A DNA stretch of 64,000 bases from an uncultured Verrucomicrobiae bacterium (GTDB taxonomy: Bacteria > Verrucomicrobiota > Verrucomicrobiia > Limisphaerales > Palsa-1400), in the NCBI GenBank assembly GCA_963764165.1, contig CAVXRD010000001.1, positions 1,216,001-1,280,000 of the forward strand. The letters are read 5' to 3'. This document shows, one piece after another, positions 41,311 through 58,527 of the stretch. The notes under the pieces were generated by a model that had not been told where the DNA came from, did not search any database, and saw only the letters and a list, made by a program, of their open reading frames with translations. Positions within the stretch are counted from its first letter, which is position 1, and each line of letters opens with the position of its first letter. A program made the translations under genes and the position numbers.

Positions 41311-41628
41311 TCATGTCTTGATTCGATTCAATGCGCGACGCGCTCGATCGCACGGACTGCCTGGCTTCAGATCTGTCGTTCCATCGCCCTTCATGCACGG
41401 CCATCGAACAGTGCGGCCAATTGGACCAGCGATCTTGTGAACCAAATCTCCAAGCCCCTGCCCCATTGAAAACTCCCGCCGGATCGCCTCGTAATCGGAT
41501 TCGCTCAGTTGCAGGAATTGTTCGCCGTTGCGGTCAACGAGTTTTCCTCTTGACAGGCAGGCGTCGAGGTAGCCGGGCTTGCGGGCGGCGGCGGCCGACG
41601 GCGCGTGTTTCATGCTAAGATATTTCAT
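41311..41628 (-). CDS. Small Cys-containing phage-type protein
   Basis: GLGDLVHKIA...C...CDRARRALN motif; ATGA overlap with upstream gene. Confidence 0.7.
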   Translation of the reverse strand: MKYLSMKHAPSAAAARKPGYLDACLSRGKLVDRNGEQFLQLSESDYEAIRREFSMGQGLGDLVHKIAGPIGRTVRWPCMKGDGTTDLKPGSPCDRARRALNRIKT

Positions 41629-42371
41629 GGCCATTCCGCGGCGCCGGTAAATGGATCGTCGGGGGGCGCGTCGCAAGTCTGGCTCGGATTCCAGCTTGAG
41701 CCAAAGCCCGCGAAAACCCCGTTCGTCGGCGTAAGACTCGCCAGATCAGGCAAGATCGACATATTGCCGGATCCGAATATCCCGTAAGGCGGCAAACTCG
41801 CGCCGGGTTGAATAATTCCGAGCCAATACTGCTGCACCTGGATGGTGTCGTCCATCGTTGGATCAGGAATCGGCAGGTCCACGATCATAGGATATTGGTC
41901 ATCGGATTGCTGGGGGTAAATGCAGCCGCGCGCAAACCAGTTGACGCTTTGGCCGCAATTCGGCTCCGGCGAAATGTTAATGCTCGTGCCATACGCGATC
42001 ACGTAGTAAGCGGTCGGCAGCGGCAGGTAGAATTGCGATTTATAGACCGTCGGCACACTGCACGGCTGGCAGCAAACGCACGCGGTATAGTCCGGATTCC
42101 AGCCAACGCATTGGGTGAAATTTTCCGGATAGCCAATGCCCGAGGTGCAGCCATTGGTCGCCAGATTGTCCGGGGAAGTGTGGCCCGGATCGCTGAAATA
42201 GCCTGTCAAGCGATTACCCCAAGGCACCGTGGTGATGTCGTAGGCATTCGTCCAATTGATGATGTTCGTTGGATCGCCACCCGGGCCAAGTTCGGCCCCG
42301 ACGCAGCGCATCATGTAACCGCAATTGGCGCAGCCGCAGGCGGAAGAGGCCGCTATTGTCATGTCAATCAT
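41625..42371 (-). CDS. Cys-rich hypothetical protein (possible tail-tip component)
   Basis: 248 aa, CGCANC and CVCCQPC; position at distal end of tail region. Confidence 0.65.
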   Translation of the reverse strand: MIDMTIAASSACGCANCGYMMRCVGAELGPGGDPTNIINWTNAYDITTVPWGNRLTGYFSDPGHTSPDNLATNGCTSGIGYPENFTQCVGWNPDYTACVCCQPCSVPTVYKSQFYLPLPTAYYVIAYGTSINISPEPNCGQSVNWFARGCIYPQQSDDQYPMIVDLPIPDPTMDDTIQVQQYWLGIIQPGASLPPYGIFGSGNMSILPDLASLTPTNGVFAGFGSSWNPSQTCDAPPDDPFTGAAEWP

Positions 42372-42388
42372 AATACAAAAGCTTTCAA

Positions 42389-42491
42389 GGTAGGGACGCC
42401 TCGCCGAGGCGTCCGGGGTGAGGCATTATTCTTGCGCGGGTCGCGGAAATTATTCACGCGCAACCGGACGCCTCGGCGAGGCGTCCCTACC
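42389..42491. repeat. Host REP pair inside phage-like cluster
   Basis: ggtagggacgcctcgccgaggcgtcc ... ggacgcctcggcgaggcgtccctacc, intergenic. Confidence 0.88.
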
Positions 42492-42501
42492 TTAAAATCC
42501 T

Positions 42502-44928
42502 CTAGGATGTCTCCGTTGGCGTCGTGCATAGAATATAAAAGCTGTAAGTCTTCATGGTGGGCGTTCCACTCACGTTGACGCATTGGCTGTAGCTGACCTG
42601 CTGAAAATAAGCCTGCGCGTTCGACGGCAAATCCGCCGGGCTGATGCGGACGCACCCGCCCGCTGTGCCGCCGCTTCCCAATTGCAGATGGAGAATCGGC
42701 GCATTGGGAGCGCCCAAACCCGAGATGTTCCCGTAGTTCGGCTGCCCGCTGCCGCGAACATCGACGGTAAGGCCGGGATTGCCATGAGCGTAGGAATTCG
42801 ACGCCAAATCCGAGAGGCTCGCGGGAAAAATCTGCAAATCCGGCGCGCGGGTGCCCGGACTCGGGCCGCGCTGGGCGACGCTGTTGCCAAGTTGCGCGCC
42901 TGCCTGCTGATTCGCGTCATTGGTGATGTTCGAGCCGATGAAATAAATTTGCCGCGGCCCGCGATTCGCGCGCAACCGCTCCACCATGTCCCGCGCGCCG
43001 AGATGGGCGGCCGGCCCGAATCGGAGTGTCGTGCGTCCATTGGTCAAGTCGTAGGAAATTTGCTGGACGCATGCGTTCATCGCCGCCCATTCACTGCGCC
43101 CGCCGGAGATGTTGAGGTTGTTTCCCATTGGGCAGACATCGCTCACCTCGATTTCTTGGACGCTGAACGAGCCTTCGAATTGTGGAATTTTGGCGATGTT
43201 GTAAATGAATCCAGCCAAACCGTAGGGAACCACTTCGCCCTGCACAAATCCCGCCTGATGCTGATAAACGCCGCCAGGAATGCTCACCAGCGTCACGCGC
43301 GCCGTCTTCTCGTGATACGGAACGTGCGCTGTTTGAATCGAGCTCGATCCAACTTTGCTAACCTCGCTAATCACCCACTTCGCGTTAATCACCGCTTGAA
43401 CAACCTGGGCCGCTGTTCCAGACGGCGCATTGCCCGCCAGCATCCAGGGCGCGATCTGCCCGTCTGTCAACAAATACTGAAACGTGGAAAGATCCACCGC
43501 GTTTCCGTCATCGGCCCCGCCGGGATCATCCGCCGTCACGGAAACAGACGAGCCGGAGAACAGCGATGGCGTCGCGGCCAGCGTCTTGAATTCAGGAAAA
43601 ATCTTTTGCCAGAACGGAATGGCTGACGAATTTGAACTGGGATCAGCCGTGTTCACCGCCATCGTTTTGATGCTGCATTGAATCAGATTGCTGCTGTTTC
43701 CCTCCATGTCGATCGTCGCGGTGACGCCCGCGAAATCGCGCCCCGCCGCCTCCAGCGCCTGCATGGTGGCGCTGTTGGCGCTGCCGCCGACAAATGCGGG
43801 CGAACCGCCGAACGCGCTGGCGGCGGTGTAAAGCGCGCCTGTCAATCCTATTCCCTCGTAAGCCGCGCCGCTGACGGTTCCCGCGACATCGTGAACCACC
43901 TCCGTGTAAAGGCTTCCCGAGTTTGATCCTGTGATGCGGAACTTGAGCGCCACCGCGGATGGCGTGAGGTCATCGCGTTTCTTGATTCGGAAATTCTCCG
44001 TTGTGCCGACGAACGGCAAACTCACAGCCGGCAATTGGTCGCGCGTCGCAACATGCAACGTAGGCGGCGTGGTGGAGTAATCGAACCACACCAGCCCGTC
44101 GCCCATTGGCCCAATCCATTTTAGTTGCCGCCGCAGCGCCTCCGCGCAGGTTATATCGTTGACAGCGTCGAGCGGCGCGCGCAGCACCGTCCGCATGTCC
44201 GCCGCCGTCGTCCCCGTTTGCGCGCTTGTCTTGCCGGTGGCGGCGTAGCCTGGAATGTAATCGGGAATGAGAAGATTCGTGCCCGGCGTCACGTATAAAT
44301 CCCAGTTCGTCCCATCAATCGCCGAGGTCAGCGCGTCGGATTGCAATTGCGGCGACCCGTAATCAATCGTCGTCTGCCCGGCAACGTAAGCGATGATTTC
44401 GGCGATTTGCTGCCGGATCGACATCAGGTTGGTCGCGTTGCTGCCGGGCACCGTATCGTTGGGGCCGACGAGCGCATTCACGCTTTGCCCAAGCACGATC
44501 TGGCTCCGCCAATCCGCCACGTTGGCTGTTCCATTCCAAGTGAACCAGAGTTTTTGGAACACCAGGCGCTCAAAGAAAAATTCCCATGGCCCGGCGAATT
44601 TCAAATCGAACTTCTCCAGCGCCGGACTTCCGCTGCGAAAGGTTTCGACGCGCCAGCCAATGAACCATTGCGTCCCGCCAGTCCACGAGGTGTTGCCGCT
44701 CAACGGCAGACCGGCGGCGTTGGTTCCAGCGCCAGAGGATGGCGCGCGCCCGATTCGCAGGATGATTTTTCCACCGTAGGGAATCGGATCATCCGCGTCG
44801 GCTGGGAGCAGCAGTTTGCAAGCGAGGTGGTCGTGGGCCTGATTGCCAATCTCGCGCTCGCACTGGCTGATGTTCCAATCCGCCAGCGATTTTTCGACGC
44901 CGTTATACGTAAGTGTGGTGAAGGTCAT
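42502..44928 (-). CDS. Large putative tail hub/tip protein
   Basis: About 808 aa, beta-rich; C-terminal VQQISYDL..G.TTLRFGP motif resembles phage tail hub proteins; position in cluster. Confidence 0.6.
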   Translation of the reverse strand: MTFTTLTYNGVEKSLADWNISQCEREIGNQAHDHLACKLLLPADADDPIPYGGKIILRIGRAPSSGAGTNAAGLPLSGNTSWTGGTQWFIGWRVETFRSGSPALEKFDLKFAGPWEFFFERLVFQKLWFTWNGTANVADWRSQIVLGQSVNALVGPNDTVPGSNATNLMSIRQQIAEIIAYVAGQTTIDYGSPQLQSDALTSAIDGTNWDLYVTPGTNLLIPDYIPGYAATGKTSAQTGTTAADMRTVLRAPLDAVNDITCAEALRRQLKWIGPMGDGLVWFDYSTTPPTLHVATRDQLPAVSLPFVGTTENFRIKKRDDLTPSAVALKFRITGSNSGSLYTEVVHDVAGTVSGAAYEGIGLTGALYTAASAFGGSPAFVGGSANSATMQALEAAGRDFAGVTATIDMEGNSSNLIQCSIKTMAVNTADPSSNSSAIPFWQKIFPEFKTLAATPSLFSGSSVSVTADDPGGADDGNAVDLSTFQYLLTDGQIAPWMLAGNAPSGTAAQVVQAVINAKWVISEVSKVGSSSIQTAHVPYHEKTARVTLVSIPGGVYQHQAGFVQGEVVPYGLAGFIYNIAKIPQFEGSFSVQEIEVSDVCPMGNNLNISGGRSEWAAMNACVQQISYDLTNGRTTLRFGPAAHLGARDMVERLRANRGPRQIYFIGSNITNDANQQAGAQLGNSVAQRGPSPGTRAPDLQIFPASLSDLASNSYAHGNPGLTVDVRGSGQPNYGNISGLGAPNAPILHLQLGSGGTAGGCVRISPADLPSNAQAYFQQVSYSQCVNVSGTPTMKTYSFYILCTTPTETS

Positions 44929-44996
44929 GTCTGGAATTTTTAAATTTGGGCCTTCCGCCGTCGCTCCGCTATGGCGCGACAAGCAGGAACGGAGCC

Positions 44997-47077
44997 TCAG
45001 GGCGCGGAGATCAAATTTGTGTGAGAGCCCGTGATCCAATACAACGCGCATGCGCCCGCGCCATTATTGGAACTCCAGAAAATTCCAGAGCCGGAAATGG
45101 CTGCGGGCGGCGTGGTTCCATTGGCGGGCATTACGATGTTATTTGACACGCCCAAGGTCCCGCTAACCGTGAGGGTGAAAGCGGGAGAGGCCGTGTCAAT
45201 GCCGACGTGGCCACTGTTGGTGGCGTAGAGGACAGATCCGCCGAAACCGGCATACTTTGTCATGTTCAAAAAACCAACCTGAGCCGGACTAAACTGCACC
45301 GTGGTGTTCGTTTGCGACGACCACGGCAACGTCGTTCCGCCCGCATTCGAGGGATAAAACGACAATTGCCACGTCAGCGGCTCATTATTGTAATAGGCGT
45401 AAACGTCTTCGCTCAGGGCTGGGCCGCTCGTTACATAGTAAAGGCCGCTCTGGTTGTAGTAGCTGTTCAGGAACGAGGTAAAACTGGAATTCGTTTGCGA
45501 TTGCAGAAAATATCCGCCCTCGCGAATTTGCGGCATGCCAATGTCCGGGTCGTAAAACCCGGTGCCATCGGGCAGGACGCTGACGCCGACGGAACCGTTG
45601 TTCATGACCGCTCCCGCGATGGACGAGCCAGCCTCCACGTAACCGACCGCAACGCCCGTCATGTTCTCCAAATAGATCGGATACCCTCCAGTGGGCAATC
45701 CGCCCGAAACAATCGTCAGCCCGTCGATCAGCCCCGCATTGCCCACGCCGCCTGTCAAAGAAACAGGACTTCCGCGCCCCGCAACGTAGCTTTCGGCCTG
45801 CACCGCGGTCATTCGCACATTGTTGAACGTGCCTGTTCCGGTGTGGGTGTAGACGGCGTTTTGCGCCCAATTGTCAATTATGCAGTTATTGAAGAACAGC
45901 CCGCTGGTGGTGCTGCCGGCGCCGCTTTGAAACTCAGGCTGCACGTCAACGGCATTCGTATAGCCGCCCGTGTCACCGTAACTGCCCCAGTCAAACGCGC
46001 CCCCGCCCGAGTTCAGAATTTGCCCGCCACCGGAGCCTTCCCAGCGAATCGCGCAGCGCGACTTATGAATGCCGCCGACGCCGCCGAGCGCCTCCCAGCC
46101 CGAATTCAGAATCGTCCAGCCACCCACGTCCACGTTGGCGAAGTTGTTGATGCGAATGCCGTCGCAATACCAGCGAATCCAGCTCAAGTTATATGCCTGC
46201 CAGCCCTGGCCCGCCTGGTAATCCACGCAGCGGTAGCCGCCGTCGAGAAGCACGTTGTTCCAATTGCAGCTCACCGCGCCGTTGATGCCATCGGCGTTCG
46301 TTGTCAAACAAACGAATGCGCCGGCGCTGGGCGGAGTGGCGTTCGTCCAGAATCCGGCGATGTTCTGAAACGTCAGGTAACTCCCCCTCGCCACAAAGCA
46401 ATTGAGGTGAGGTTTGTCCAAACGATGGCGGAAACCAATGTGTCCGGCTGGCCCAACGCCCAAGACCCGGCGCCATCACCGAGGATGGTCAGGTTCGCGT
46501 TCGTGATAATAATATTTCCGCTGACTTTGTATTTTCCGCGCGGGAAATAAATGGCGCCACCGTTTCCCGCCGCCGCCATCGCGTTGGAAATGGCGGCGTT
46601 GTTATCGGTGACCCCGTCCCCGACGCCGCCTGTGGAAGTGATGTTCACATAGCTGGCAATCGATACAGGAACCCACGCGGCGCCATTCCATTCCAGCACC
46701 TGGCCCGCGGCCGCGCCTGATTGCGTCAACGCCGAGGTCGGAAGATTGGTCGCGCCAGAAATATTGCCGCTGACGATCGCAAGGTTTGTCGCGATTTGTC
46801 CGCTGGTGGTGGCATTGGTCAAGTAAGTATTCGTGCCAAAACCACCGAAGGGCGCAATTCCCGAACCGCCACCCCCACCCCCTCCGCTGAATCCAGCCCG
46901 GGTCAGCGCGTTGGTCAGCGGCGTGATATTCGTGTCAAAGAAATTGGTTTCGTTGGGCGGAATGGCGTTATTCGTATTGACGACGAATACTTTGTTGGTG
47001 GAAATCTGCGCCGAAGCGGGATAATCCATGGCGGCGAATAATAAAATCGCGAATAGAATGCGGAATGCGGTTTTCAT
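44997..47077 (-). pseudogene. Tail fibre/spike with pectate-lyase-like beta-helix, split by a single-base frameshift near 46410
   Basis: ORF 46373-47104 (GQVLEWNGAAWVP; GGVGDGVTDN.AAI..A...GGAIYFPRGKY) continues in ORF 44997-46463 (beta-helix, GHVGIDTASPAFTLTVSG). Confidence 0.7.
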
Positions 47078-47108
47078 TTTGGTCGGAAGTTTGAGCGGGT
47101 TCATTTTC

Positions 47109-47735
47109 TTAGTATCCTTGGTCTGAGAGTTGGAGGGTCAGGACGCCGCCGTCGTTTAGAATCGACAGCGTATGATAAAGTCCAGTGGTGGCATCGAGCA
47201 GTTGCGGGACAATCCGCCCCGAAACAGTCGTGTAACGCAATCCGGCCAGGGGCGGAGCGCTGGCGCTGGTGGCGGGGCCGTCCTTCACCGTAAGCGGGCC
47301 ATTCAAAATGGTGATGTTCTTGGCCGGAGAATCAGTCGTCTGGGCCGTGATGCGCAGCCAATAGTTGACGCTGGCCAGCCCGCCGAGGCTAATGGCCGTC
47401 TGGCTATTCGGGAACAAGAATGCAGCGTGATAAAACGGCGTGGTATTGCCGTTCCACTCACTTTGCGTCAGCGACAAATTCATGCTCGCGGCCGCGACAA
47501 AGCAACTCAGCATCGGCGGGTTGGAATCGTTTTCCGCCGCAAAAATTTGCGCGGTCACGGAGGCGACATTCGACAGCGAGGTGAGCAGGGCGCCGTTTTG
47601 GCCCAGGCCGATGTCAATTTCGATGTCGTCGCCGCGATAAAACGAGGGCGGCTGATTGCCGCGATTGAGATCAATAAGATTGCCCGGCGCGGCGACGTCG
47701 CACAGCAGCCGGATGGGAAGAGGTGTCAATGCCAT
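47109..47735 (-). CDS. Putative baseplate/fibre-attachment protein
   Basis: FYRGDDIEIDIGL N-terminal pattern reminiscent of BppU-like domains; position before the fibre gene. Confidence 0.5.
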   Translation of the reverse strand: MALTPLPIRLLCDVAAPGNLIDLNRGNQPPSFYRGDDIEIDIGLGQNGALLTSLSNVASVTAQIFAAENDSNPPMLSCFVAAASMNLSLTQSEWNGNTTPFYHAAFLFPNSQTAISLGGLASVNYWLRITAQTTDSPAKNITILNGPLTVKDGPATSASAPPLAGLRYTTVSGRIVPQLLDATTGLYHTLSILNDGGVLTLQLSDQGY

Positions 47736-47769
47736 ATGTCAATAATAGGAATTTTTGGGGTGATGGAAA

Positions 47770-48240
47770 TTACGGGCTGGTCTGCCACGCGCCGTTGCCG
47801 CAGATCGAATAGGTGATGTTGCAGGCAACTTCCTGGTGCGCCACACACGCCACCGATTCCACAACGGCATTCGGCAAATAGCGCGTGATCAATCCAGTGC
47901 CGGATTGGTTGTAAATCGTGATTTCGCCCTGCACCGGAACGCTGTCTGGATGAAACAGAATGAAGGCCAGGCAGGCCTCCGCCGTTTGAAACGACCGCTG
48001 CGCCGTAAAGGCAAAGCGGTTTTCAAGGTTGTAGCGGGGAATGTTCGAGAGATAGGCCGCCCGGAACAGCGGTGCTTTCTGGATGATCCGCTTTTGCTGG
48101 TTGAGGCAGCCTTCCTTGACCTGCCCTCCAGCGCCGCTGGAGAAATTCGTCGAGGGCGCCGAACCGCTAATAAGGCGGATGCTGTCATCGGCCAGGACAA
48201 ACGGCACGGAACCGCCAGAGGGGGTGATGGTGATTTTCAT
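47770..48240 (-). CDS. Hypothetical phage tail protein (distal-tail-like position and size)
   Basis: 156 aa beta-rich ORF with ATGA overlap to the upstream gene. Confidence 0.55.
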   Translation of the reverse strand: MKITITPSGGSVPFVLADDSIRLISGSAPSTNFSSGAGGQVKEGCLNQQKRIIQKAPLFRAAYLSNIPRYNLENRFAFTAQRSFQTAEACLAFILFHPDSVPVQGEITIYNQSGTGLITRYLPNAVVESVACVAHQEVACNITYSICGNGAWQTSP

Positions 48241-48521
48241 GTTTGGCTGAAGTCCGCAAAGAATTGCACGGCGTCGCGCATTTCCAATTGGGAGACGTTT
48301 GGATCCGAGTTGAGCCGGAGACGGAGACGGCGCAACGCCTGCGCCTCAATCGCCCGAATCATCGCCGGCGTGCAATCGCACCAGGCGGCAATTTCACCCG
48401 CGCTGTGAGTCGCGCGAGGTTTGGCTGCGGCGGACAAAATCGCCAGGCCCAGGTCGATGCGCCTGCCTTTCCGTCCGTTGCGAATCGGCGGCGAATCCAC
48501 GTTTTTGTGATCGTGCGTCAT
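48237..48521 (-). CDS. Small protein with sigma-70 region-4-like HTH
   Basis: HSAGEIAAWCDCTPAMIRAIEAQALRRLR parallels T.EEIG.....TRERIRQIE.KALRKLR. Confidence 0.7.
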   Translation of the reverse strand: MTHDHKNVDSPPIRNGRKGRRIDLGLAILSAAAKPRATHSAGEIAAWCDCTPAMIRAIEAQALRRLRLRLNSDPNVSQLEMRDAVQFFADFSQT

Positions 48522-48524
48522 GGT

Positions 48525-49460
48525 TTATGCGAGGGTTAAGGCCGCCCGGGATGGAACGCCGCCGCTGGCGATGTTAAGCGTGCTGACCCACCCCAATTCG
48601 CCCACGCGCAACGGGCGCCCGCCAAAGACGTATCCCGCCGATTTCAACGCCGCGTTGCCAAGGGTAATGGTGATGCTGCTGCTGCCCGAAATCACGAGAT
48701 TGGCTGAATTCGTTGACAGCCGGTAACCGCCCGCGGCTCCCGTTCCCTGCGCATACAGCGCCGCGTCAATTTGCGCCGCCGTCGGCCCGAGCGGTTTGCA
48801 TTTGGCCATCACGCGGCAGCTCGCCAGCTTGAACGCGCGCGTCCGGCCTTGAATGGTCACCGGCTCCAATTTCAGTTCGTGGCTGATCGTCCATTTATCC
48901 TGCGCTTGAAAGCTCGTGAATCCCGCGATGCTTCCCCACGCCGCCGTGAATTCCTGCCGCCCGAGGACAGCCGTGCCGGGAACGGCGGGATTGCTGAACG
49001 ACTGGCCTGTTTGCAGCGTGTAATAGCTATTGGCGGAACTCGCGTTCTGGCCGTTCGCAATGACGCCCCAAATTTCCATGCGGCCCAGCACCGGCCCTTC
49101 GACGCCGAGTTCCAGGTCCGGCATTTTGCCGACCAGCGCGCTCGTCAGCGCGACGACATCGCCGTTGTTGCTGTTCCACGCGCAAGCCACGTCGGAACTG
49201 CCGGGAAAGGACGTGCCGACCGTGGCGGAGACATACGGGAACATGGTCGCCAGCGCAGCCGTATCGTAGAAGAGCGGGCGGCCTTGGGCTTTGACGACCA
49301 TGTCCCGATAAATTTCGTCCACGTCGCCGTAAAGCGAAGTGGCAACAACGTCGGTGACGAGCGCTGTTTCGACGGTGGAATCCTCGGCAAATTGAATATT
49401 CTGGCCATTAAAGGCCGCGTAAGCCGGACCGCCGGCAAGTTGGGATCGGGTGACACTCAT
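48525..49460 (-). CDS. Putative major tail tube protein
   Basis: 311 aa with two similar beta-rich halves, located after adaptor and terminator genes. Confidence 0.55.
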   Translation of the reverse strand: MSVTRSQLAGGPAYAAFNGQNIQFAEDSTVETALVTDVVATSLYGDVDEIYRDMVVKAQGRPLFYDTAALATMFPYVSATVGTSFPGSSDVACAWNSNNGDVVALTSALVGKMPDLELGVEGPVLGRMEIWGVIANGQNASSANSYYTLQTGQSFSNPAVPGTAVLGRQEFTAAWGSIAGFTSFQAQDKWTISHELKLEPVTIQGRTRAFKLASCRVMAKCKPLGPTAAQIDAALYAQGTGAAGGYRLSTNSANLVISGSSSITITLGNAALKSAGYVFGGRPLRVGELGWVSTLNIASGGVPSRAALTLA

Positions 49461-49493
49461 AAATTGTGTATAGTTGACATGTGTTGGATGGGT

Positions 49494-50213
49494 TTAATTG
49501 ACGACGAACGTATCGATCATGCTTCCCTGCAAAGCGCCGTTGTAAGCCGCCGTGCGGACAGTCGTGCCGCCTGCGACGCTGAACGGCGTCGTGTACAAAG
49601 TCGCATTAGGATTTCCCGCCCCGGGGAAACTCGCGTCCGTGGTGTAAAAAATGGCGGAGCCGCCGCCCGGCTGCTGGTCCGAAAGCGTGACCGTGCCCGC
49701 ATTGGCGCTGGCGCCCGGAATGATCGTCCGCGTGAGCGCGGTTAACGCAAACGTCGCGCGCAGCGTCACTGCCAGGGCAATGAAGGGCGAATCTGCGGGA
49801 GTCGAAACGTATTCATAAAACGTGGGCGCGGCGTAAAATCCTTGCAGCGCCCCGCCGAGGAAAAACAACTGAAACGTCTGGGCCAAATTCACCGCAATTT
49901 GTTCGGCGCTAAGCCCGGTGCCATTTGCGCCCTGGTTCACAGTTGGCTGCTCCTTCACGAGAAATTTCTGCTCCAGCGTGCAAACCGGCCCCGCTGTATC
50001 CGGCAAAGCGGATTTCAACGCGGGCATCAGAACTTCGATCGACGCCCCGCCCTTTCCGTTGCGTCCCGAAAATCCCGACAAGGCGCGGCTGACTTCGGTG
50101 TCCATTCGTTTCTCGCGCACTTTGAAAATGGCGATGCTTTGGAACCATGGCTCGGAGAGCAGCTTGTAATAGACGTCCGGCTGGACGGATTCGATTTGGG
50201 CGGCAAGGCTCAT
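49494..50213 (-). CDS. Putative tail terminator/completion protein with C-terminal Fn3-associated (chitobiase-like) domain
   Basis: Follows the gp36-like gene; IFYTTDASFP...ATLYTTPFSV...TVRTAAY is an Fn3-associated Ig-like domain signature. Confidence 0.6.
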   Translation of the reverse strand: MSLAAQIESVQPDVYYKLLSEPWFQSIAIFKVREKRMDTEVSRALSGFSGRNGKGGASIEVLMPALKSALPDTAGPVCTLEQKFLVKEQPTVNQGANGTGLSAEQIAVNLAQTFQLFFLGGALQGFYAAPTFYEYVSTPADSPFIALAVTLRATFALTALTRTIIPGASANAGTVTLSDQQPGGGSAIFYTTDASFPGAGNPNATLYTTPFSVAGGTTVRTAAYNGALQGSMIDTFVVN

Positions 50214-50237
50214 ATTGAAAATGGGAAAATGGGTCGA

Positions 50238-50690
50238 TTAGGTTTCGCCGAGCTTGTCAAATGAATGCGTTGAAACGCGATGGCCCCGGCGAATGGCCTC
50301 CACCCGGAAACTAGGGCCGGTCACGTTCTGCGGATTGGCGGGAATCTCCACCTTCTCGCGCCCTTCGCGAATTTTCTCCATGCGCTTGACAGATTCGTCG
50401 TATTGGGCGCGCCGGAAATCGCTCTGCAAATCCGTCTTGGGCAGGCTGCAAAACCACTTCCAGCGAACCATTGCAATGGCGTCGGAGCGAATCTGGTCAG
50501 GCACGGTTCCGACTGGCCCAATCTGGTTTCCGCCGACCAGGATGCCCGCCTGAATTTCAGCGGTGATGGTCGCGAGGATGGTCGAAAGGATCGACGAGCT
50601 TCCCTGAATCGTGTTCAGCATCGTGACTTCGTCCGGGAGGATTTCCGCCGTGACGTCAGCGGCGGCAAGTGTGTTCCAAGGCATAAGCAA
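50238..50690 (-). CDS. Mu gp36/DUF1320-like head-tail adaptor
   Basis: TVPDQIRSDAIAMVRWKW...RRAQYDESVKRMEKIREG resembles DUF1320; position after capsid. Confidence 0.7.
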   Translation of the reverse strand: MLMPWNTLAAADVTAEILPDEVTMLNTIQGSSSILSTILATITAEIQAGILVGGNQIGPVGTVPDQIRSDAIAMVRWKWFCSLPKTDLQSDFRRAQYDESVKRMEKIREGREKVEIPANPQNVTGPSFRVEAIRRGHRVSTHSFDKLGET

Positions 50691-50757
50691 TTTTGTTGAG
50701 GTAAGGAGCGCCGGCGCGGAAGGATGGGATGGTTGCCGCGCCGGCGCTGTTGGTTGG

Positions 50758-51273
50758 CTAAGGCGTGATGCTGGCTTGCAGCGTGAGGTTAATGTTGCTG
50801 ATCGCGCCGTTGGAAACGGACGTGATGCGGAAAGCCGTGGCCGGCTCCCACAGGCTCGTCGCGATGTTCGTCGCGGCGGTGACCTGGTTCGTGCCGTTCA
50901 ACGGGAACGTCCAGATAAACGGCGTAGTGGTGGTGAAGTTTGTGCCGTAACGGCCGTTGATCGCGGCCGGATTTCCGCCCGCGCTGTCGTAGGCGAAATC
51001 CACCTTCACGGTGACGTTGCTCAAGGCAACGTTGTTCGTTGTCGTCACGGTGGCCCACAATCCGATCGGATGCGAACCGCTGTAAGCGAGGAACGTGTTG
51101 GTAGAAGCGGCAGCCTGGAACAACTGGTTGCTGGTGAGCGTCTGGCTGGACACCAGCGTGTAAATGCGCGGCGTCACCTGGGTGGTGACCTGCGCAGCCG
51201 CGCGGCGCATTCCGGCGGCCAGCATGGCGGACGTGGCGAGAAGGACCAAGCCCTTCTGAATGAATCTTTTCAT
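50758..51273 (-). CDS. Signal-peptide-bearing Thr/Asn-rich beta protein
   Basis: MKRFIQKGLVLLATSAMLAAGMRRAAAQ N-terminus; between capsid and adaptor genes. Confidence 0.75.
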   Translation of the reverse strand: MKRFIQKGLVLLATSAMLAAGMRRAAAQVTTQVTPRIYTLVSSQTLTSNQLFQAAASTNTFLAYSGSHPIGLWATVTTTNNVALSNVTVKVDFAYDSAGGNPAAINGRYGTNFTTTTPFIWTFPLNGTNQVTAATNIATSLWEPATAFRITSVSNGAISNINLTLQASITP

Positions 51274-51296
51274 ATTCGTGTTTCGATTTAAGAGTT

Positions 51297-52364
51297 TTAG
51301 TTGACTGTGATTTGCTGAATTCCAGTGGTGTGCTGCACGTGCAGGAACTCGTAGTTTTCGACCGTGAGGGCGATGAGCTTGACGCCGACATCGGTGACAT
51401 AGACGGCGTAATCGCCCCCGCCGTAAGCGGAGTTGGCGACGTGCCGCACGAGGTTGCTCGAGTCCATCGGGCCGTCGGCTTCGATGCTGGTGAACAGCAT
51501 GACGTTGCTGCCGATGATTTCCTGCTTGGCCGTGCCGGTGGATTGCTGGTAGCGCTCGGCGTTGATGATGCAGCGATCCACACCGATGGCAGTGGCCACC
51601 TGCTCTTCCGTGAATTGCCCCGCTCGCGCCAGCGCGCCGGCGGTGAGCTGTGTCTCGTAGGCGTTCTGGCGCTTGAGCGCGGCCTGATCACCGTAAACGG
51701 CGACCAGCGGATAGAAGCCGGTGGTGTTGGCCAGGTTGATGATGTCCTGCTTCAATTCCAAATCAGGATTGCTGCCTGTATCCCAAATGGTGGAGGAAGT
51801 GATGGCTGCGGCTTGCAGAAGCGAAACCGCTTCCAGCACAGTGGCGCGCATCATCAAGTCCAGCAGCCACTTGGTGTGGACCTGCTGCCATTCCGGCTTA
51901 TCCTTGAGCTGGTCGCGGTCCAGCAGCACGGTCAAACCGCGATTGGGCACCTGCAAATCCACCTTCGTGGCGACGCGCTGGCGCACGCGCATGAAGTCGG
52001 ACAGGATGCTGCGTTTGACACGCGTGTAATCCACGGTCTGCCACGGCTCGTTTTCGTCGTAAACTGTCAAGCGCACGATGCGGCTGTTGCTGGGGCGCGG
52101 CGGGGCCAGCGTGTCGCGCAATTGGCGGAGGCGGTTGCCGACCATGCCGTCGTAGCTGATGGCAAAGGCGGTCAATTCCTCGATGTATTCGGACTGCCGG
52201 AGCAGCGAATCGTTGGCCAGGCAAACCTGCCCGTGATGCGCGCCGACGTTGTTGGAGGAAATCGCGTTGGGGGCAAAATCGTTGCCCAGCGCGACTCCGA
52301 GGGATTCCAACGCCGCCACGCGGGCGGAATTGGAGAGGACGATGGGGTCTTTCATAGTTGTCAT
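51297..52364 (-). CDS. Putative major capsid protein
   Basis: About 355 aa, downstream of protease and decoration genes; size and position fit an HK97-fold capsid. Confidence 0.7.
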   Translation of the reverse strand: MTTMKDPIVLSNSARVAALESLGVALGNDFAPNAISSNNVGAHHGQVCLANDSLLRQSEYIEELTAFAISYDGMVGNRLRQLRDTLAPPRPSNSRIVRLTVYDENEPWQTVDYTRVKRSILSDFMRVRQRVATKVDLQVPNRGLTVLLDRDQLKDKPEWQQVHTKWLLDLMMRATVLEAVSLLQAAAITSSTIWDTGSNPDLELKQDIINLANTTGFYPLVAVYGDQAALKRQNAYETQLTAGALARAGQFTEEQVATAIGVDRCIINAERYQQSTGTAKQEIIGSNVMLFTSIEADGPMDSSNLVRHVANSAYGGGDYAVYVTDVGVKLIALTVENYEFLHVQHTTGIQQITVN

Positions 52365-52375
52365 GGAGTGATGTG

Positions 52376-52864
52376 TTATTGGGTGATCGAGTAGGGGAAG
52401 CACGGGATGAACGGGATGTCCAATCCGCCAGCCCCAACAGTCTTGGTGGCGCGGCCGATGACCCAGAATGTGCCGTGCCCGGCAGTTGTGAGGTCGCCGA
52501 CGTAACCGTTGGGGGCCGAGTAGACGAGATTGTCAATCGTGACCGATCCCACCGAAACGCCGAGCTGCATGCCGACGGTGGCGCCAAAACGCTCGATGTC
52601 GAAGAAGTCGCCCAATTGGTAAGGGGCGTCCGGCGACACGCCAAGCGGCATGCTGGTCCCGTCCGCGACCGCGGCGTAATATTGGCCGGAACCGCGCTTG
52701 TAAACCAAATACTTGCTCGTGACGGGCAGCGAACTGCCCGGATCGATCTGGAGCGATTCGCGCCCGTGTTCGAACACGCCGCCCAATTCGTTGGCCAGGG
52801 CAACAGGCTCCGGCCCGGCGAAAAATGCGGCGGGGTTCAGGATGAATTTCAGGAATTTTCTCAT
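52376..52864 (-). CDS. Putative head decoration/cement protein
   Basis: YLVYKRG...PLGVS.D...GSVTIDNLVYSAPNG...VIGRA pattern resembles DUF2190-like proteins; immediately before capsid. Confidence 0.65.
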   Translation of the reverse strand: MRKFLKFILNPAAFFAGPEPVALANELGGVFEHGRESLQIDPGSSLPVTSKYLVYKRGSGQYYAAVADGTSMPLGVSPDAPYQLGDFFDIERFGATVGMQLGVSVGSVTIDNLVYSAPNGYVGDLTTAGHGTFWVIGRATKTVGAGGLDIPFIPCFPYSITQ

Positions 52865-52907
52865 AGGTAACTTTTTTCTGTGGATATTTTTGGTGTTCGT
52901 TTCTGGG

Positions 52908-53165
52908 TTATTTCTTTGCCGCCTGGTTTCGGGCAGCTTCGAATTCACGCTGCCGCTTTATGACGGCGATGGCCTGCTCGCGGCGCAAACCGCGCGCCAT
53001 TTTTTCGCCGATGATGACCTCGTCGGCCTCGGCTTGTTTCTTGACAGCCTCAAACTGCGCGATGCGGGCTTTGAGGATGGCGTTCTCGGCCGCCAGATCG
53101 CCGGCGGCGGGCGGCGGCGTGGCTGCCGCGGTGGATGGTGCTGATGATGGAGTTTCTTTTGGCAT
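52908..53165 (-). CDS. Small coiled-coil hypothetical protein
   Basis: 85 aa ORF filling the gap between protease and decoration genes. Confidence 0.65.
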   Translation of the reverse strand: MPKETPSSAPSTAAATPPPAAGDLAAENAILKARIAQFEAVKKQAEADEVIIGEKMARGLRREQAIAVIKRQREFEAARNQAAKK

Positions 53166-53181
53166 AGGTGGATCGGTTGAA

Positions 53182-54381
53182 TTAACGGGCCCGCAATTTT
53201 TCGGCGAGGCCGGGGTTGCTGCTCATTACGGCGTGGTGCGCCTTGACGGGATCGGTCTCGCCGCTTTCCTTCATGTGGCGCTCGACGGAGGCGCAATACT
53301 CTTCGCGCACGTCGCCGCTGGCGCGGTGGTTGGAGAGAATTTTTCCACTTTCGGCGCACGCCGTCGTTTTGAAGCGGGCGGGAGCGTCCAGCAAGCTGGC
53401 TGATTCGCGCTCGAAATCGGCTGCGTTTTCCAGCGCCTGAAGACGTGTGGAGCGTTCGGACACGGCCACTTTGCCGCGAGCAATCGCCAAGTCGACGACT
53501 CCGGCGGCACGCTGCGATTTCACCTGCGCGATTTGCGTTTTCAAGCCGTTCGCCTCGTTTTCAAGCGCGGCGGCAGCGGACTTCAAATTCGCGACTTGCG
53601 ATTTGAGATCCTCGTTTTCGCCGGACAGGGTTGCATTCTCGTTGCCCAGCGCCGCGGCCTCGCCGGCGGCGGAGGCGTGGAGCTTTTGCAGGGCTGCGAG
53701 AACCTCGGGTTCGGCCGGGCTGTCGGGATGGGCGAGAGTCGCGCCATTGGCCAGCAGCCAGCCTGCGATGAGTTTCATTTCGGGTTCTTTTGTTGGGATG
53801 TTTTCTTCGGTTGCACCGGCGGGTCTGGCGTTGGCCAGCGATTCCACGCCGGAAATGTTGGGATGGGCCGTCAGGCCCGCGGACAAAAGCTTGAAGGGCC
53901 GGGCCAGAATGGCGTTGCCGCGCCGCCCCATCGGCTGGACATACCAAAGCGCGCTGGGATATTTGCATCCGTCGCGCTCAACGGCTTCGGCGCCGGCAGG
54001 CGTCAAGACGAAATGCGCCTCCAGCCCGCGCTCGGATTTGCGCACCTTGTCGATGGCGCCGATGATTTCCTTCTTCCCTGCGCGCTCCGTCGAATTGGGC
54101 GAGAAGTCCGCCAGATCAGGATGGCCTTTGTAGACCGGAATGCCGATCACGGCGCGGCGAATGCGGCGGAAGAGAGAATTCTCGCGGGAAAGAAGCTGGT
54201 CGGCCGATTCGTGGTCGAGAACCTGGATGAAGTGCTCGCGCTCGATTCGCCCATCTTTTCGGACGAGGCGCGACTTGGGATGCTCGCCAAAGGGCGCAAT
54301 CAGCGCCCAGCCTTCGTCGTCAAGTGAGTATTCATTTGACAGAATGGTCATGTGTTGGGTCATGGGTAAATTCGGGTTCAT
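53182..54381 (-). CDS. Mu-like prohead protease/scaffold (protein I)
   Basis: WALIAPFGEHP, PVYKGHPD, GLEAHFVLTPAG, YPSALW, LLSAGLTAHPNI, then coiled-coil scaffold and VDLAIARGKV. Confidence 0.85.
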   Translation of the reverse strand: MNPNLPMTQHMTILSNEYSLDDEGWALIAPFGEHPKSRLVRKDGRIEREHFIQVLDHESADQLLSRENSLFRRIRRAVIGIPVYKGHPDLADFSPNSTERAGKKEIIGAIDKVRKSERGLEAHFVLTPAGAEAVERDGCKYPSALWYVQPMGRRGNAILARPFKLLSAGLTAHPNISGVESLANARPAGATEENIPTKEPEMKLIAGWLLANGATLAHPDSPAEPEVLAALQKLHASAAGEAAALGNENATLSGENEDLKSQVANLKSAAAALENEANGLKTQIAQVKSQRAAGVVDLAIARGKVAVSERSTRLQALENAADFERESASLLDAPARFKTTACAESGKILSNHRASGDVREEYCASVERHMKESGETDPVKAHHAVMSSNPGLAEKLRAR

Positions 54382-54389
54382 TGCTTTGG

Positions 54390-55835
54390 TTAGGCGGCTT
54401 GGTTTGGAATCGAGTAACCGAGCGCCGGCTCAGTCGCATGCGAACTGTAGAAGCCCGCTTCGTCCACCTGCGGATCCGGCATGTCCGGATTGGCGGTCTG
54501 CGGCTCGCGCCGGGCGTCTGCGCCGGGCGCGATAGGCGTCGCGCTGGAAGAAGCGGCCGGGAGCGAGTGCGTTTCGCGGGGATGGCCGGTTGTATCGCCC
54601 TCCTCCCGGCCGTGGGGTCGGGGGTTGCGGGGAAATTCGAGGCACGGCTCGCCGGGCGCTGGCGGCGTCCAGCGGAAGCGCTTGTAAGCTTCCTTCAAGC
54701 TGATGCGAAGGCCCATCGGCACCAGCGCCTGGGCGCACTGCAAATCCATCGCCGCCGAATCGTCCTGCGGCGCGACCACCGCCATCCAGGCCCGCGGCTC
54801 TCTGTCAAATAGGTAACGGATTACGGGACGGTCAACGCGGTCGTTCAAAATTTCTGAGGCCCAGGCGGCGTCGCGGGCGAGGAAAATTCCGGATTCCTCT
54901 TTTTGCACGCTCGCGCCAACGACGTTTCGCCCGGATTCGCGGCTGCCAGTGGCAAGATCGACGCCGCGATAACATTTGGCGTAAAGGCGATTGACCAGTT
55001 CCACCAGAGGCGCGAACGGGAGGGTGGCGGCGGCGGGAATGCTCGAAAATTTAATGTTTAGGTCAGGGTTGTGAATGACTTGTCCATCGTTGGCCAATTC
55101 ATTCAACACCTGGCGGGCTTCCTCCCACGCAGGATCGCCCTTTTGCGCGCTCGTGACGGCCTCGACAAAACCAGAGCCGTAGCGGGCGTTGAACAACAGC
55201 CAGTCGCGCAGGGAAAGCGACTTCAAGACAAACGCCATGCTGAGCGAGCGCATCAGCCCCTGCCCGACCGCCGTCAGCCATTCCCCTTGCAGGCAAGGCT
55301 CGCCGTAGACGTCAAATATATGTTTGAGATAGCCAAGATAGCCGCGGCGGCTCTCGAAGAACCAAATGGGCGTGTGGCGGAATTCGGCGGTCACCTCGCG
55401 CGCGGCGGGATTATCCACCCGCAGCAGCATTTCGTGGACGCTATAATAATGCGAGTGCGCGGTGGCGAGCTGGTAGAGCAGTTCGCTCACGCCGCCCGAG
55501 GAATCCTGGTCCAGCGCCCGGGTGGTGCGCAGATGGCGGTAGAAATACTCGAGGGCCTGGGCGTGGCGGTCCCCTTCCGGGCTGCCGTCGGAAACGATCT
55601 GCCAATCAAGCCCGGCGAGGTCGGAGGCGCGCTTGTCGGCATTGGCCGAAAGCTCGCCGTCCCGTTCAATCATGGTTTCCCATATTTTGCCGACAACGCG
55701 CAATTCGCCGATGCGGAAGGCGTTGAGGTTGGAGGAAATCCAGTCCATCGAAATGTTCGGCATCGGCGAGTAGCGGAGCCGGATGGCCCATTCGATGCGG
55801 GCCTGGTCAAATTGAGATGCGCCACTGAGGTTCAT
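54390..55835 (-). CDS. Mu gp29/DUF935-like portal protein
   Basis: WETMIERDGEL.A...KR...LAGLDWQI, YSVHEM, LRDWLLFNARYG, LARDAAWASEILN, ALVPMGLRI. Confidence 0.85.
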   Translation of the reverse strand: MNLSGASQFDQARIEWAIRLRYSPMPNISMDWISSNLNAFRIGELRVVGKIWETMIERDGELSANADKRASDLAGLDWQIVSDGSPEGDRHAQALEYFYRHLRTTRALDQDSSGGVSELLYQLATAHSHYYSVHEMLLRVDNPAAREVTAEFRHTPIWFFESRRGYLGYLKHIFDVYGEPCLQGEWLTAVGQGLMRSLSMAFVLKSLSLRDWLLFNARYGSGFVEAVTSAQKGDPAWEEARQVLNELANDGQVIHNPDLNIKFSSIPAAATLPFAPLVELVNRLYAKCYRGVDLATGSRESGRNVVGASVQKEESGIFLARDAAWASEILNDRVDRPVIRYLFDREPRAWMAVVAPQDDSAAMDLQCAQALVPMGLRISLKEAYKRFRWTPPAPGEPCLEFPRNPRPHGREEGDTTGHPRETHSLPAASSSATPIAPGADARREPQTANPDMPDPQVDEAGFYSSHATEPALGYSIPNQAA

Positions 55836-55936
55836 AGTGTGTTCGGGTAGCGGTTGGATGAGCCCAGCGCGGGGATTCGGGCCGCCTGCAGTTCGTTCTG
55901 CCGGCCGCGCGTTTCGCGTTGAGCTTTATGTTTCAT
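55832..55936 (-). CDS. 34-aa leader ORF coupled to portal gene
   Basis: MKHKAQRETRGRQNELQAARIPALGSSNRYPNTL; stop overlaps portal start (ATGA). Confidence 0.4.
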   Translation of the reverse strand: MKHKAQRETRGRQNELQAARIPALGSSNRYPNTL

Positions 55937-55954
55937 GCTCGTCATTACGCAACG

Positions 55955-56013
55955 AGTGAAACATGCATTTATTGAAACAGAAAACCTACCAGAGGTTTTT
56001 TAGCACGATTTTT
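55955..56013 (-). promoter_or_regulatory. Conserved dyad motif AAAACCT-CTGGT-AGGTTTT (copy 3), heading the phage-like cluster
   Basis: Plus strand acagaaaacctaccagaggttttttagcacgattttt is the reverse complement of copy 1. Confidence 0.8.
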
Positions 56014-56274
56014 GCAAAAAAAATGCACTTTTTTGCCCCTAAGTCCCATTTCTTGATGCAAGCGCACTTAAAAAAGGGGACAGAAAATGAAAAAGCGGGG
56101 GGGGTTGGCTTTTTTGCGGCGGTTTTTCGCAAAAAGAATGATTTTCTGCCGATTCTTAAGTGCGGCGATGGGAAGAATGGGAATGATGTGACTAATGGGA
56201 TATATGGGACAATACCAATTCAGGGACGCGCGAAACGGGCCTCGGCCTCTTTTCCTGAGTTCGGGCGTTCCTGA

Positions 56275-58503
56275 TTAAAACCTCTTCTTCGGCGCGAAGC
56301 GCCGCAAGCGCAGTGCGTTTCCCAGCACTATCAAATCGGAGAAGCCCATCGCCGCGGCGCACAGAATTGGGCTGAGAAATCCCAAGGCAGCCAGCGGGAT
56401 GGCGGCGGCGTTGTAGAAAAAGGCCCAGAATAAATTTTGCCGGATTGTTGACAGCGTGGCGCGGGCCTGCCGCAAGGCTTCCGGCACGGCTTCGATTCCG
56501 GAATTTAATAGCACCATGTCGGCTGCTTCGCCCGCAATGTCGCTGGCGCGGCCAACTGCGATGCCAAGGTCGGCCTGCTCCAGCGCGGGAGCGTCGTTGA
56601 TGCCATCGCCGACGAAAGCGACTTTCTCGCCTTGCGACTGGAGCTTGCGCACGAGTTCCGCTTTGTCGGCGGGTTTTATTTCCGAGTAAACCCGATCTGC
56701 GGCAATGCCGGCTTGCTTCGCGATGGTGGCGGCGGCGCGCAGGTTGTCTCCCGTCACCATGAAAACGCGCAACCCGCTGTTTTCCAACTCGCGCACTGCA
56801 GCGGCGGAGGCTGGCTTCACGGTGTCTTTTAACGCCAGCAGCGCGAGCAATTCTCGATCCCGCGACAAGCCTAGAATAGTCGCTCCTTGCTCGCTCCAGC
56901 TTGCGATGAATTCGGAATTTTCGGGAATTGGAATCCCGCATTGCCGAAGCCACGCCATTGAGCCAAGCCGCGCCAAGCTGGAAGCGGACACCTTCGCCTC
57001 GACGCCTGAGCCAATGACTTCGCGCCAATCAGAAAGCTCAATTGCGTCAAAATCCAATTTAGCGACAGCGCGGCTGAACGGATGTCGCGATCCGCGAGCG
57101 AGCGCGGCGGCCAGCGGCAGTTTGGCGCCTTCCGTGGCGGCCACCGCCGGTTCTCCTTGCGTGAGAGTTCCGGTTTTATCGGCGAGGAGGACGGTTATTT
57201 TGCCCGCTTTCTCCAGCGCAATTCCGTCGCGAATCAAAATGCCGTGCCGGGCGGCGACGTGCGCTGCAACCATCAACGCCGCTGGCGTGGCCAATCCCAT
57301 CGCGCATGGACACGCGACAATGAGCACGGCAACCGCGTTTAGAATCGCGGCGGCAAGCGGTGAGCCGTGGATGTGCGGCTGCCAAAGAAAATGACTCATC
57401 CACTCGCCGAGGGCGCGGGCGCGTTCAGGCGCAAGACCCCACCAAAGTCCCGTCGCAATTGCAACTGAGACGACAATGGGAACGAAAACGCTGCTGACTA
57501 TGTCGGCCAGCCGTTGAATGTCAGCGCGGCTGTTTTGCGCGCGCTCAACAGCGGCTACAATTCGCGCCACCGCCGTTTCCTCGCCGACGGCCGTGACCTC
57601 GGCATAGGCATGGCCGTTGACGTTGAGCGTTCCGGCGTATATTTGACTGCCAACATCCTTTTCAACTGGCACCGATTCACCCGTCAGCATCGCTTCGTCG
57701 ACGCTGCATTGCCCGCGCAGCAAGCGTCCGTCGAGAGGGATCCGGTCGCCGGGGCGCAGGACAATTTGATCGCCGGGGCGCAATTCAGAAACGGGCGCAT
57801 CGGTTTCACTGCCGTCCGCCCGGGCGCGCCGCGCGGTGGCGGGAGCGAGCGCGAACAGCGAGCGCATGGATTTTTCCGCGCGGCCGCTGGCGCTGGCCTC
57901 GAACCAATGGCCGATGCTGATGAGCGTGATGATCGACGCCGCTTCCATGAAGCAGAGACGCCCCCTCGCGCCCGCGAATAGCTCGTAAACGCCAAAACCG
58001 AATGCGGCAGTGGAACCCAGCGCCACCAGCGTATCCATGTTCGAGCGCCCCGCTTTGATCTGCTGCCACGCGCCTTTGTAAAATCTTGCGCCGCCGAAAA
58101 TTTGCAGCGGCAGCGTGAGAACAAATCCAGCCCAATGAAACCAGCGTTTATCGCCGAGATGAAAAATCCATTCGCCAACCATTAACGGGATTGTCACGCA
58201 AAGACCGCCGATAACGTTGACGCGCCATCCATCGAGAGAAGATTTATTTCCCGGCTTCGTTTCGGGCGAAACAGCTTTGGCCTCGAAGCCGGCGGCTTGA
58301 ACTGCGCTTGACAGGGCGGAAATATCGGGAGTCATGTCGGCGCGCCAATGCACCCGCGCCCGGCCGTCCTGCAAGGACACGCTGGCGCTGGCGACGCCAG
58401 CCACACTTTGCAGGGCGTCGGTGGCATTTCGGGCGCAATTGGAGCAGGTCATTCCGGCAATGAGCAACTCGCTGCGAGGCCCGGCTTGAATGGCGGATGC
58501 CAT
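56275..58503 (-). CDS. copA: Heavy-metal (Cu+) P1B-type ATPase
   Basis: GMTCSNC, TGES, CPCAMGLATP, DKTGTLT, GDGINDAP, WAFFYN. Confidence 0.9.
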   Translation of the reverse strand: MASAIQAGPRSELLIAGMTCSNCARNATDALQSVAGVASASVSLQDGRARVHWRADMTPDISALSSAVQAAGFEAKAVSPETKPGNKSSLDGWRVNVIGGLCVTIPLMVGEWIFHLGDKRWFHWAGFVLTLPLQIFGGARFYKGAWQQIKAGRSNMDTLVALGSTAAFGFGVYELFAGARGRLCFMEAASIITLISIGHWFEASASGRAEKSMRSLFALAPATARRARADGSETDAPVSELRPGDQIVLRPGDRIPLDGRLLRGQCSVDEAMLTGESVPVEKDVGSQIYAGTLNVNGHAYAEVTAVGEETAVARIVAAVERAQNSRADIQRLADIVSSVFVPIVVSVAIATGLWWGLAPERARALGEWMSHFLWQPHIHGSPLAAAILNAVAVLIVACPCAMGLATPAALMVAAHVAARHGILIRDGIALEKAGKITVLLADKTGTLTQGEPAVAATEGAKLPLAAALARGSRHPFSRAVAKLDFDAIELSDWREVIGSGVEAKVSASSLARLGSMAWLRQCGIPIPENSEFIASWSEQGATILGLSRDRELLALLALKDTVKPASAAAVRELENSGLRVFMVTGDNLRAAATIAKQAGIAADRVYSEIKPADKAELVRKLQSQGEKVAFVGDGINDAPALEQADLGIAVGRASDIAGEAADMVLLNSGIEAVPEALRQARATLSTIRQNLFWAFFYNAAAIPLAALGFLSPILCAAAMGFSDLIVLGNALRLRRFAPKKRF

Positions 58504-58527
58504 GGGCACACAATAGGGCGAATTGGC

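Follow-up and report, generated by a model that had tools for sequence, protein, structure and literature searches.

To our knowledge, few independent origins of gene transfer agents (GTAs) have been documented. According to the accessible part of PMC9662315, GTA viriforms are virion-like particles derived from caudoviricetes, fully endogenised, often encoded at several loci and inherited mostly vertically, which package mostly random host DNA, never their own genome whole, and deliver it to other cells. PBSX packages chromosomal DNA as 13.4-kb fragments (PMC12946183, in the part available). The stretch analysed here, called the window, comprises 64,000 nucleotides of an uncultured Verrucomicrobiae bacterium (G000:C1:1216001-1280000, where G000 is the source genome, G001 and so on are its relatives, and g1 and so on are genera) and contains a compact operon of phage head and tail genes. 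Comparative analysis indicates that this operon, together with a packaging module and a repressor encoded elsewhere in the genome, is probably a GTA-like viriform descended from a Mu-like phage, domesticated and encoded at several loci; its particles would carry host DNA and transfer it to kin.

The operon consists of 17 open reading frames (ORFs), all on the minus strand between 41311 and 55835, starting with the portal and closing with a small gene that ends at 41311 (Table 1). An earlier note, made from the letters of the window, had described a single-strand head-tail run with one frameshift, bounded by host genes, carrying a host repetitive extragenic palindrome (REP) and devoid of selfish or early functions, and this description held. 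Pfam matches were obtained for the portal, protease and gp36-like adaptor, and folds were predicted for tube and hub; GH76 and copA genes lie on either side; the REP 26-mer has 331 matches in the genome at 3 mismatches or fewer; and the run 41311-55835 yielded no gene for a transposase, integrase, terminase, sheath, tape measure or lysis function. The tube model resembles the double-domain tubes of siphophages P74-26 and T5 (VIA Z 13.5, 255 aligned, rmsd 3.7), and a gp27/Mu gp44/VgrG hub fold was assigned to the 808-aa ORF by Foldseek. The ORF of the major capsid protein (MCP) has no capsid match in Pfam or PHROG and was named solely from its Atlas look-alikes, which are capsid clusters (0.98; 12% of one of them bears Phage_cap_E); searching PDB sequences with profiles of the capsid and the tube gave no relevant match. 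The decoration, terminator, distal tail (Dit) and upper-baseplate (BppU) labels are presumed from gene position only. Compared with an intact paralogue on contig C4, the fibre gene is one base short near 46406, and this frameshift may be an assembly error, because rpoC (G000:C2:1204849-1208940) is frameshifted twice in the same assembly and accounts for every one of the 3 frameshifted hits obtained in 37 orthologue comparisons.

The large terminase (TerL), which the earlier note had missed in the run and proposed to seek elsewhere in the genome, was found on contig C2, in a packaging/release module lying behind the same promoter variant as the portal; it is of Terminase_6 type (Terminase_6N/6C). 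The portal and terminase promoters, compared over 27 bp, are 85% identical within a genome and 55% between genomes, and the partner promoter of the own genome was the best match in 9 of 10 genomes. An extended -10-like element (about 55955-55963) occurs just downstream of the palindrome at the head of the operon; the spacing to this element and the nearby ATG suggest that the palindrome may serve as an activator site on a weak promoter. The 94-aa helix-turn-helix (HTH) protein of the operon is confined to genus g1 (4 of 31 family genomes) and shares 34% over 38 aa with an HTH protein encoded upstream of the late genes of G018. A third locus encodes an XRE repressor with its own operators. This repressor is present in 26 of the 31 family genomes, and in G025, G018 and G028 it is located beside the terminase module or within about 3 kb of it.

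Ten of the 11 relatives have a close TerL (partial in G017), at 62-77% identity. Its module stands alone in G000 and in G001, G004, G006, G008, G017, G019 and G025. In G014 it precedes the portal by about 2 kb, and in G003 and G022 it is divided by contig breaks. TerL keeps the catalytic Glu and the nuclease Asp motifs, and each of the 22 family-f1 copies in which Walker B could be resolved has GK-D in Walker A and T/S-E in Walker B, whereas outside terminases read GK-S and D-E (G043, G058) or D-E (a prophage on contig C4 and one viral contig). Such a paired change suggests a compensating swap. The best viral-contig relative of this TerL is only 33% identical, and the TerL of the C4 prophage 29%.

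The distribution of the operon points to long-term maintenance by the host lineage. The portal was matched in 15 of 61 relatives, 11 of these, besides G000, at 65-76%. The MCP was found in 12 of the 31 family genomes, at one locus each and always in genera g1, g3, g5 and g8, with identities of 83-92% in ten relatives and 68% in G014. Overall, the operon is present in 12 of the 13 sampled genomes of one host clade, with identical gene order in 11 relatives as far as contigs extend. The four genera form one clade in a tree of RpoB and RpoC (UFBoot 91; 0.85 with the G000 frameshift masked), from which G003, having no rpoB and hence no host marker, was missing, and a tree of seven cluster proteins recovered g1 (100), g8 with the internal topology of the host (100) and G006+G019 (100). 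Median dN/dS of core genes ranged from 0.06 (capsid) to 0.21 at dS of about 1-1.6, and reached 0.35-0.48 for the hub, the 171-aa gene and the last gene (Nei-Gojobori, 11 genomes, G014 omitted and saturated pairs dropped). A script for gene intactness raised flags on 13 of the 147 gene copies; a number of these flags are probably artefacts of over-long query starts. Upstream flanks are common to G001/G003/G004 and to G008/G017/G022 (two genera), and one soil contig from a close relative joins GH76 to the last operon gene. A scan with one genome per species gave 17 loci, whose closest records were metagenome-assembled genomes (MAGs) of Verrucomicrobiota/Limisphaerales, with one otherwise.

These results bear on what the earlier note had expected of a host-maintained particle derived from a transposable phage. 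The cluster is present as one copy with the same gene order in 11 relatives, its tree follows that of the host except for G014, dN/dS is well below 1 and neutral decay was not seen; nor were early Mu genes, named there as contrary evidence, found adjacent. Flanks were shared inside sub-groups and differed between them. Together with the terminase module found at a distant locus behind the shared promoter variant, these findings support host maintenance, Mu-like origin and a split architecture resembling that of RcGTA; a constant position was not supported.

Free relatives of the system were found on IMG/VR contigs L095-L101 (7 loci), with 62-64% capsid identity. Lipase, terminase and portal genes are contiguous in 4 of 5 distinct free-phage contigs checked, and these phages possess three kinds of gene that are missing from the host form: Mu F-like and G-like genes, which stand at the terminator position, and a tape-measure-like gene of 460 aa. 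The host form can therefore be regarded as a split and pruned version. An apparently complete Mu-like prophage also resides in the source genome (G000:C4 about 317000-352000), with transposase A/B, Gam, and a different portal and capsid. Its distal tail genes are 60-83% identical to those of the operon (hub 66%), and a 508-aa tape-measure-like gene follows the counterpart of the last gene, a place where the operon has none. With the C4 transposase as query, no full-length match was obtained in any of the 11 relatives; Pfam Mu-transpos_C was uninformative, giving no match even in controls. At the place where lysis genes usually stand, the host module and the free phages alike have a class-3 lipase and no recognisable endolysin. 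Two small lipoproteins accompany it in the host module, as also in the C4 prophage, and a lipase-based lysis route is possible.

Table 1. Coordinates of the operon, its promoter and flanks, and related loci (positions refer to the window unless a contig is given)
Feature	Position	Strand	Basis or remark
Mini-element	19696..20855	+	motif at 19712; same operator/promoter as operon
GH76 glycoside hydrolase, host flank	39733..40935	+	
Last operon gene, Cys-containing	41311..41628	-	
Cys-rich tail-tip protein, 248 aa	41625..42371	-	82% identical to C4 prophage copy
REP-like palindrome of host, between hub and next gene	42390..42490	.	
Baseplate hub/central spike, 808 aa, gp27/gp44/VgrG fold	42502..44928	-	Foldseek E about 1e-9
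Tail fibre/spike, pectate-lyase-like domain, frameshifted near 46406	44997..47104	-	PF12708 4e-13
Putative upper-baseplate/fibre adaptor, 208 aa	47109..47735	-	by position
Putative distal tail protein, 156 aa	47770..48240	-	by position
94-aa sigma70-region-4-like HTH, candidate activator	48237..48521	-	weak PF04545
Non-contractile tail tube, two tube domains (T5/P74-26 type), 311 aa	48525..49460	-	predicted fold
Putative tail terminator, C-terminal CHB_HEX_C/Fn3 domain	49494..50213	-	terminator label by position
Mu gp36-like head-tail adaptor	50238..50690	-	Phage_Mu_Gp36 PF07030 1e-5
171-aa protein, signal-peptide-like N-terminus (by eye), fast evolving	50758..51273	-	
Major capsid protein, 352 aa	51297..52355	-	Atlas look-alikes; median dN/dS 0.06
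Putative decoration protein	52376..52864	-	label from position alone
85-aa head-region protein, conserved	52908..53165	-	syntenic in 11 relatives and free phages
Mu I-like head protease/scaffold, 399 aa	53182..54381	-	Mu-like_Pro PF10123 1e-12; phrog_328
Mu-type portal, 481 aa	54390..55835	-	Portal_Mu PF06074 E=3e-37; phrog_113
Operator-like imperfect palindrome (55981-55999), A-rich upstream arm	55975..56017	-	63 genome copies
copA-type P-ATPase, host flank	56275..58650	-	
Packaging/release module: two lipoproteins, class-3 lipase, membrane protein, 90-aa HTH, small and large terminase	G000:C2:560197-564279		
XRE repressor, third locus	C2:2145741-2146142		

Some additional features of the tail and head genes were observed. 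The fibre (46373-47104) and the head-region protein at 50758-51273 both start with signal-peptide-like sequences, as do their free-phage counterparts. In four relatives the hub gene is broken at a like position (residue ~305-315, counted on the mature ORF), which may represent a natural form with two genes. A second prophage, of another type (G000:C4 about 445000-485500), encodes a large fibre that shares repeats and the pectate-lyase-like region with the window fibre.

The operon had been credited with its own motif-bearing promoter; the motif is there, but it also occurs throughout the genome, the 63 copies in G000 comparing with 0 in a shuffle. Each relative has its own variant, also dispersed in its genome, with strand-level matches, in which palindromes are partly counted twice, numbering 34 in G001, 82 in G003, 22 in G006, 79 in G008, 10 in G025, 85 in G017, 40 in G022, 9 in G004, 14 in G014 and 15 in G011. 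In 11 operon-free genomes a generic form of the motif occurred at the level of controls, which does not show absence, since the same pattern also missed three known variants. Phased hexamer arrays were found within 500 bp downstream of 21 of the 63 copies in G000 and upstream of 13, as against 25 of 2000 random windows. The clearest units combine the promoter, a small-terminase-like (terS-like) gene, whole or internally deleted, and an array. The unit in the window adjoins an IS4-like transposase and comprises an orphan small-terminase-like gene (20191-20784; phrog_426 2e-8) and a period-10 hexamer array from about 20795. Related terS-like ORFs are located at 9 places in G000, and the operon-free G002 contains six terS-like copies whose promoter is different, two of these with arrays, which speaks against an exclusive tie to the operon. 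A third motif copy of the window, at 32726 (+) (G000:C1:1248726), lies about 1.4 kb upstream of dnaA.

Several ideas about the motif and its dispersal were discarded. A conserved regulon was rejected, as only 7 of the 48 relatives' sites with a G000 orthologue (53 sites examined) have the G000 motif within 2.5 kb, two of the seven being terS cassettes, for a chance expectation of roughly 5-10%. One exception is a membrane glycosyltransferase-like gene (G000:C1 about 857000-859000), motif-marked in G000, G006 and G025 (three genera), which is possibly a true regulon member. Mini-Mu ends were not supported, the C4 prophage having different repeats and no motif at its ends. Lastly, the idea that terS loss blocks dispersal, based on the 2 matches at first seen in G019, was refuted, since 9 of the 12 terS-like copies fetched from this genome carry its own variant.

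The preferred interpretation as a GTA-like viriform can be compared with formal definitions. Virion proteins are related to those of caudoviricetes by sequence and fold similarity; the system is endogenised over multiple loci, three in G000, and split in 8 genomes; inheritance is mostly vertical, G014 being discordant and distal tail genes having been exchanged. Three of the six GTA criteria in the accessible part of PMC9662315 are covered by these findings. No transposase or integrase was found beside the operon, terminase module or repressor loci, and since the modules are on different contigs or more than 1.5 Mb apart, co-packaging of the whole system appears implausible. The Mu-type portal and protease and the terminase at another locus place the system outside Rhodogtaviriformidae. 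Mu-type late genes are present, without the A/B genes and portal-contiguous terminase of a Mu-like prophage, and a tailocin or contractile injection system does not fit a full head module that is the most constrained part, with no sheath or tape measure found.

A mechanism consistent with these data would start with a Mu-like temperate siphophage that was immobilised in an ancestor shared by four genera of a single Verrucomicrobiota family, and of which at least three chromosomal modules would have been kept: the head-stub-tail operon, the packaging/release module and the XRE repressor. One inducing signal may switch on the operon and the terminase module in some cells. The terminase would then cut chromosomal DNA and pump it into heads, because there is no replicating phage genome, and a non-contractile tail would form, short because the tape measure has been shortened or lost. 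Release may be helped by the lipase/lipoprotein cassette, and the particles would deliver host DNA to kin in a GTA-like manner. A less supported step is that the promoter-terS-array mini-elements would be co-induced, supply small terminase (TerS) in trans and act as packaging starts. The TerS of the module is divergent, truncated or absent, and therefore cassette copies may supply it. The dispersed mini-elements may also hint at biased rather than random packaging. It is tentatively conceivable, though doubtful, that an independently evolved, Mu-derived GTA has lost terS and packaging signals from its operon to tens of dispersed mini-elements, specific to each genome, which provide self-specific biased transduction and act as minimal packaging parasites of the domesticated particle. 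If true, each species would seed its own chromosome with matched packaging starts.

A number of observations weigh against a functional GTA-like viriform. The system is known here from genes alone, and the delivery of DNA to other cells would be its weakest step, with no tape measure found in genus g1. The tape-measure gene was not found in G000, G001, G003 and G019, and five relatives have at its position only candidate remnants of 198-253 aa, poorly conserved, so that a working tail is unproven. Of the lysis genes that the earlier note had suggested looking for, no endolysin or holin was recognised; the class-3 lipase stands at the lysis position. A close terminase module was not found in G011; the TerS proteins of different genomes share only 22-41% identity, those of G000 and G001 being truncated, and the module of G019 has none; and the Walker swap could also mean altered or reduced TerL activity. 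G002 (89% complete) belongs to the host clade and has neither operon, terminase nor repressor. In the cluster tree G014 is basal, outside its host-expected place. Flanks differ between sub-groups, and none of the relatives' genomes compared shares the copA or GH76 flank. The MCP is frameshifted in G004 and G019, the latter genome being damaged further. An exchange of distal tail genes has taken place between the operon and an active-type prophage, and copies of the promoter motif are not confined to the operon.

PBSX is known for a killing role, and a PBSX-like or bacteriocin-like particle, with host-DNA heads but selected for adsorbing to and killing competitors, or for the release of DNA and matrix, rather than for heritable transfer, would be predicted to have the same packaging parts. 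The variation of fibres and hub, and their swapping with prophages, are what selection on target range predicts. We nevertheless consider this explanation unlikely, because no sheath or tape measure was found and because the capsid, unneeded by a tail-only killer, is the most constrained protein. Another explanation can be based on the resident prophage: the operon may be a helper-dependent or defensive module, whose late genes interfere with or complement incoming Mu-like phages, for instance by diverting phage DNA into heads of the host's own, with tape measure and replication borrowed from prophages such as that on C4. The similarity of distal tail genes to those of this complete prophage, the lack of a tape measure in the operon and the occurrence of terS-array mini-elements in the operon-free G002 agree with such a role. 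It appears quite unlikely, since head, portal and terminase are of another type than those of C4, the C4 transposase has no full-length match in the 11 relatives, and the operon possesses its own co-evolving promoter pair.

The loss of F-like, G-like and tape-measure genes could also reflect a tail-less or empty capsid compartment, or a system that is losing DNA delivery, with heads used as containers or decoys; the truncated TerS, the non-canonical Walker motifs and the decay in G019 would be in line with this. Purifying selection on the portal, adaptor, terminator, tube and Dit-position genes, and a TerL that is 62-77% identical, with nuclease motifs kept and paired changes, make it very unlikely. 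Least credible by far is an origin as ordinary prophage remnants in decay, or by independent insertions that a single family of phages made repeatedly, to which the varying flanks, some frameshifts and the existence of free phages with related capsids could be attributed. The single copy per genome, the same deletions throughout, and dN/dS far below 1 at saturated dS are at odds with it, and tree congruence, dN/dS and the co-variation of promoters at two distant loci largely refute it.

Elements related to this GTA-like system were also found outside the host clade. Genera g10, g7 and g9 contain compact elements that combine the same tail block with other heads; in the stretches fetched, the C4 transposase had no match. 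Elements of sister genera are contiguous in G018, G026, G028, G010 and G016, and split in G012, as in G000. Domestication may therefore be older than the studied clade, with head modules replaced, or it may be recurrent. Intermediates of domestication are visible, from contiguous (G018, G026, G028) through a split of about 2 kb (G014) to fully split (G000). In genus g10 (G013, G018), an orphan pair of small and large terminase genes is fixed before a folE2-like gene, and its TerL copies form one clade (100).

A literature search, mostly in the open literature and partly on accessible portions of papers, retrieved no GTA derived from a transposable phage, none in Verrucomicrobiota and no description of this system; the available text of PMC12946183 does not mention Mu-like or Verrucomicrobi-, and that of PMC13626063 does not describe the system. 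The system offers a testable GTA-like case in soil and peat bacteria, to which are added a terminase with paired Walker changes and a dispersed promoter-terS-array family whose operator co-varies with the particle promoters, and the choice of host DNA by domesticated particles becomes directly testable.

As far as the accessible descriptions go, the system is comparable to RcGTA in its caudoviricete-derived head-tail cluster of ~14 kb, its distribution over several loci, its vertical inheritance with host co-diversification and its lack of replication and integration genes. It differs by an independent, Mu-like origin in Verrucomicrobiota, a terminase outside the cluster and the lack of a tape measure in genus g1, and by being known from genes. 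Bacillus subtilis PBSX and Faecalibacterium FpGTA are likewise chromosome-fixed, defective-phage-like and able to package host DNA (PMC12946183, accessible part), with other phage ancestry and tail type, whereas packaging by the operon system is only predicted. For the mini-elements, the sources, as far as accessible, offer an analogy only: the pac site of phage P1 consists of hexamer repeats bound by terminase (PMC10028697), and in S. aureus phagemids terS under its native promoter can act as a packaging signal (bioRxiv 10.64898/2026.06.26.734846). In contrast to both, the arrays of mini-elements are downstream of the terS-like gene, differ between modules and are scattered on the host chromosome. 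The system also resembles Mu-like phages of Verrucomicrobiota, with which it shares portal, protease and gp36, the late order lipoprotein-lipase-terminase-portal-head-tail and 62-64% MCP identity. Unlike these, it is devoid of transposase A/B, F-like, G-like and tape-measure genes, its TerL is without a close relative among viruses and shows the swap of Walker residues, and its late region is in two halves, each with its own promoter.

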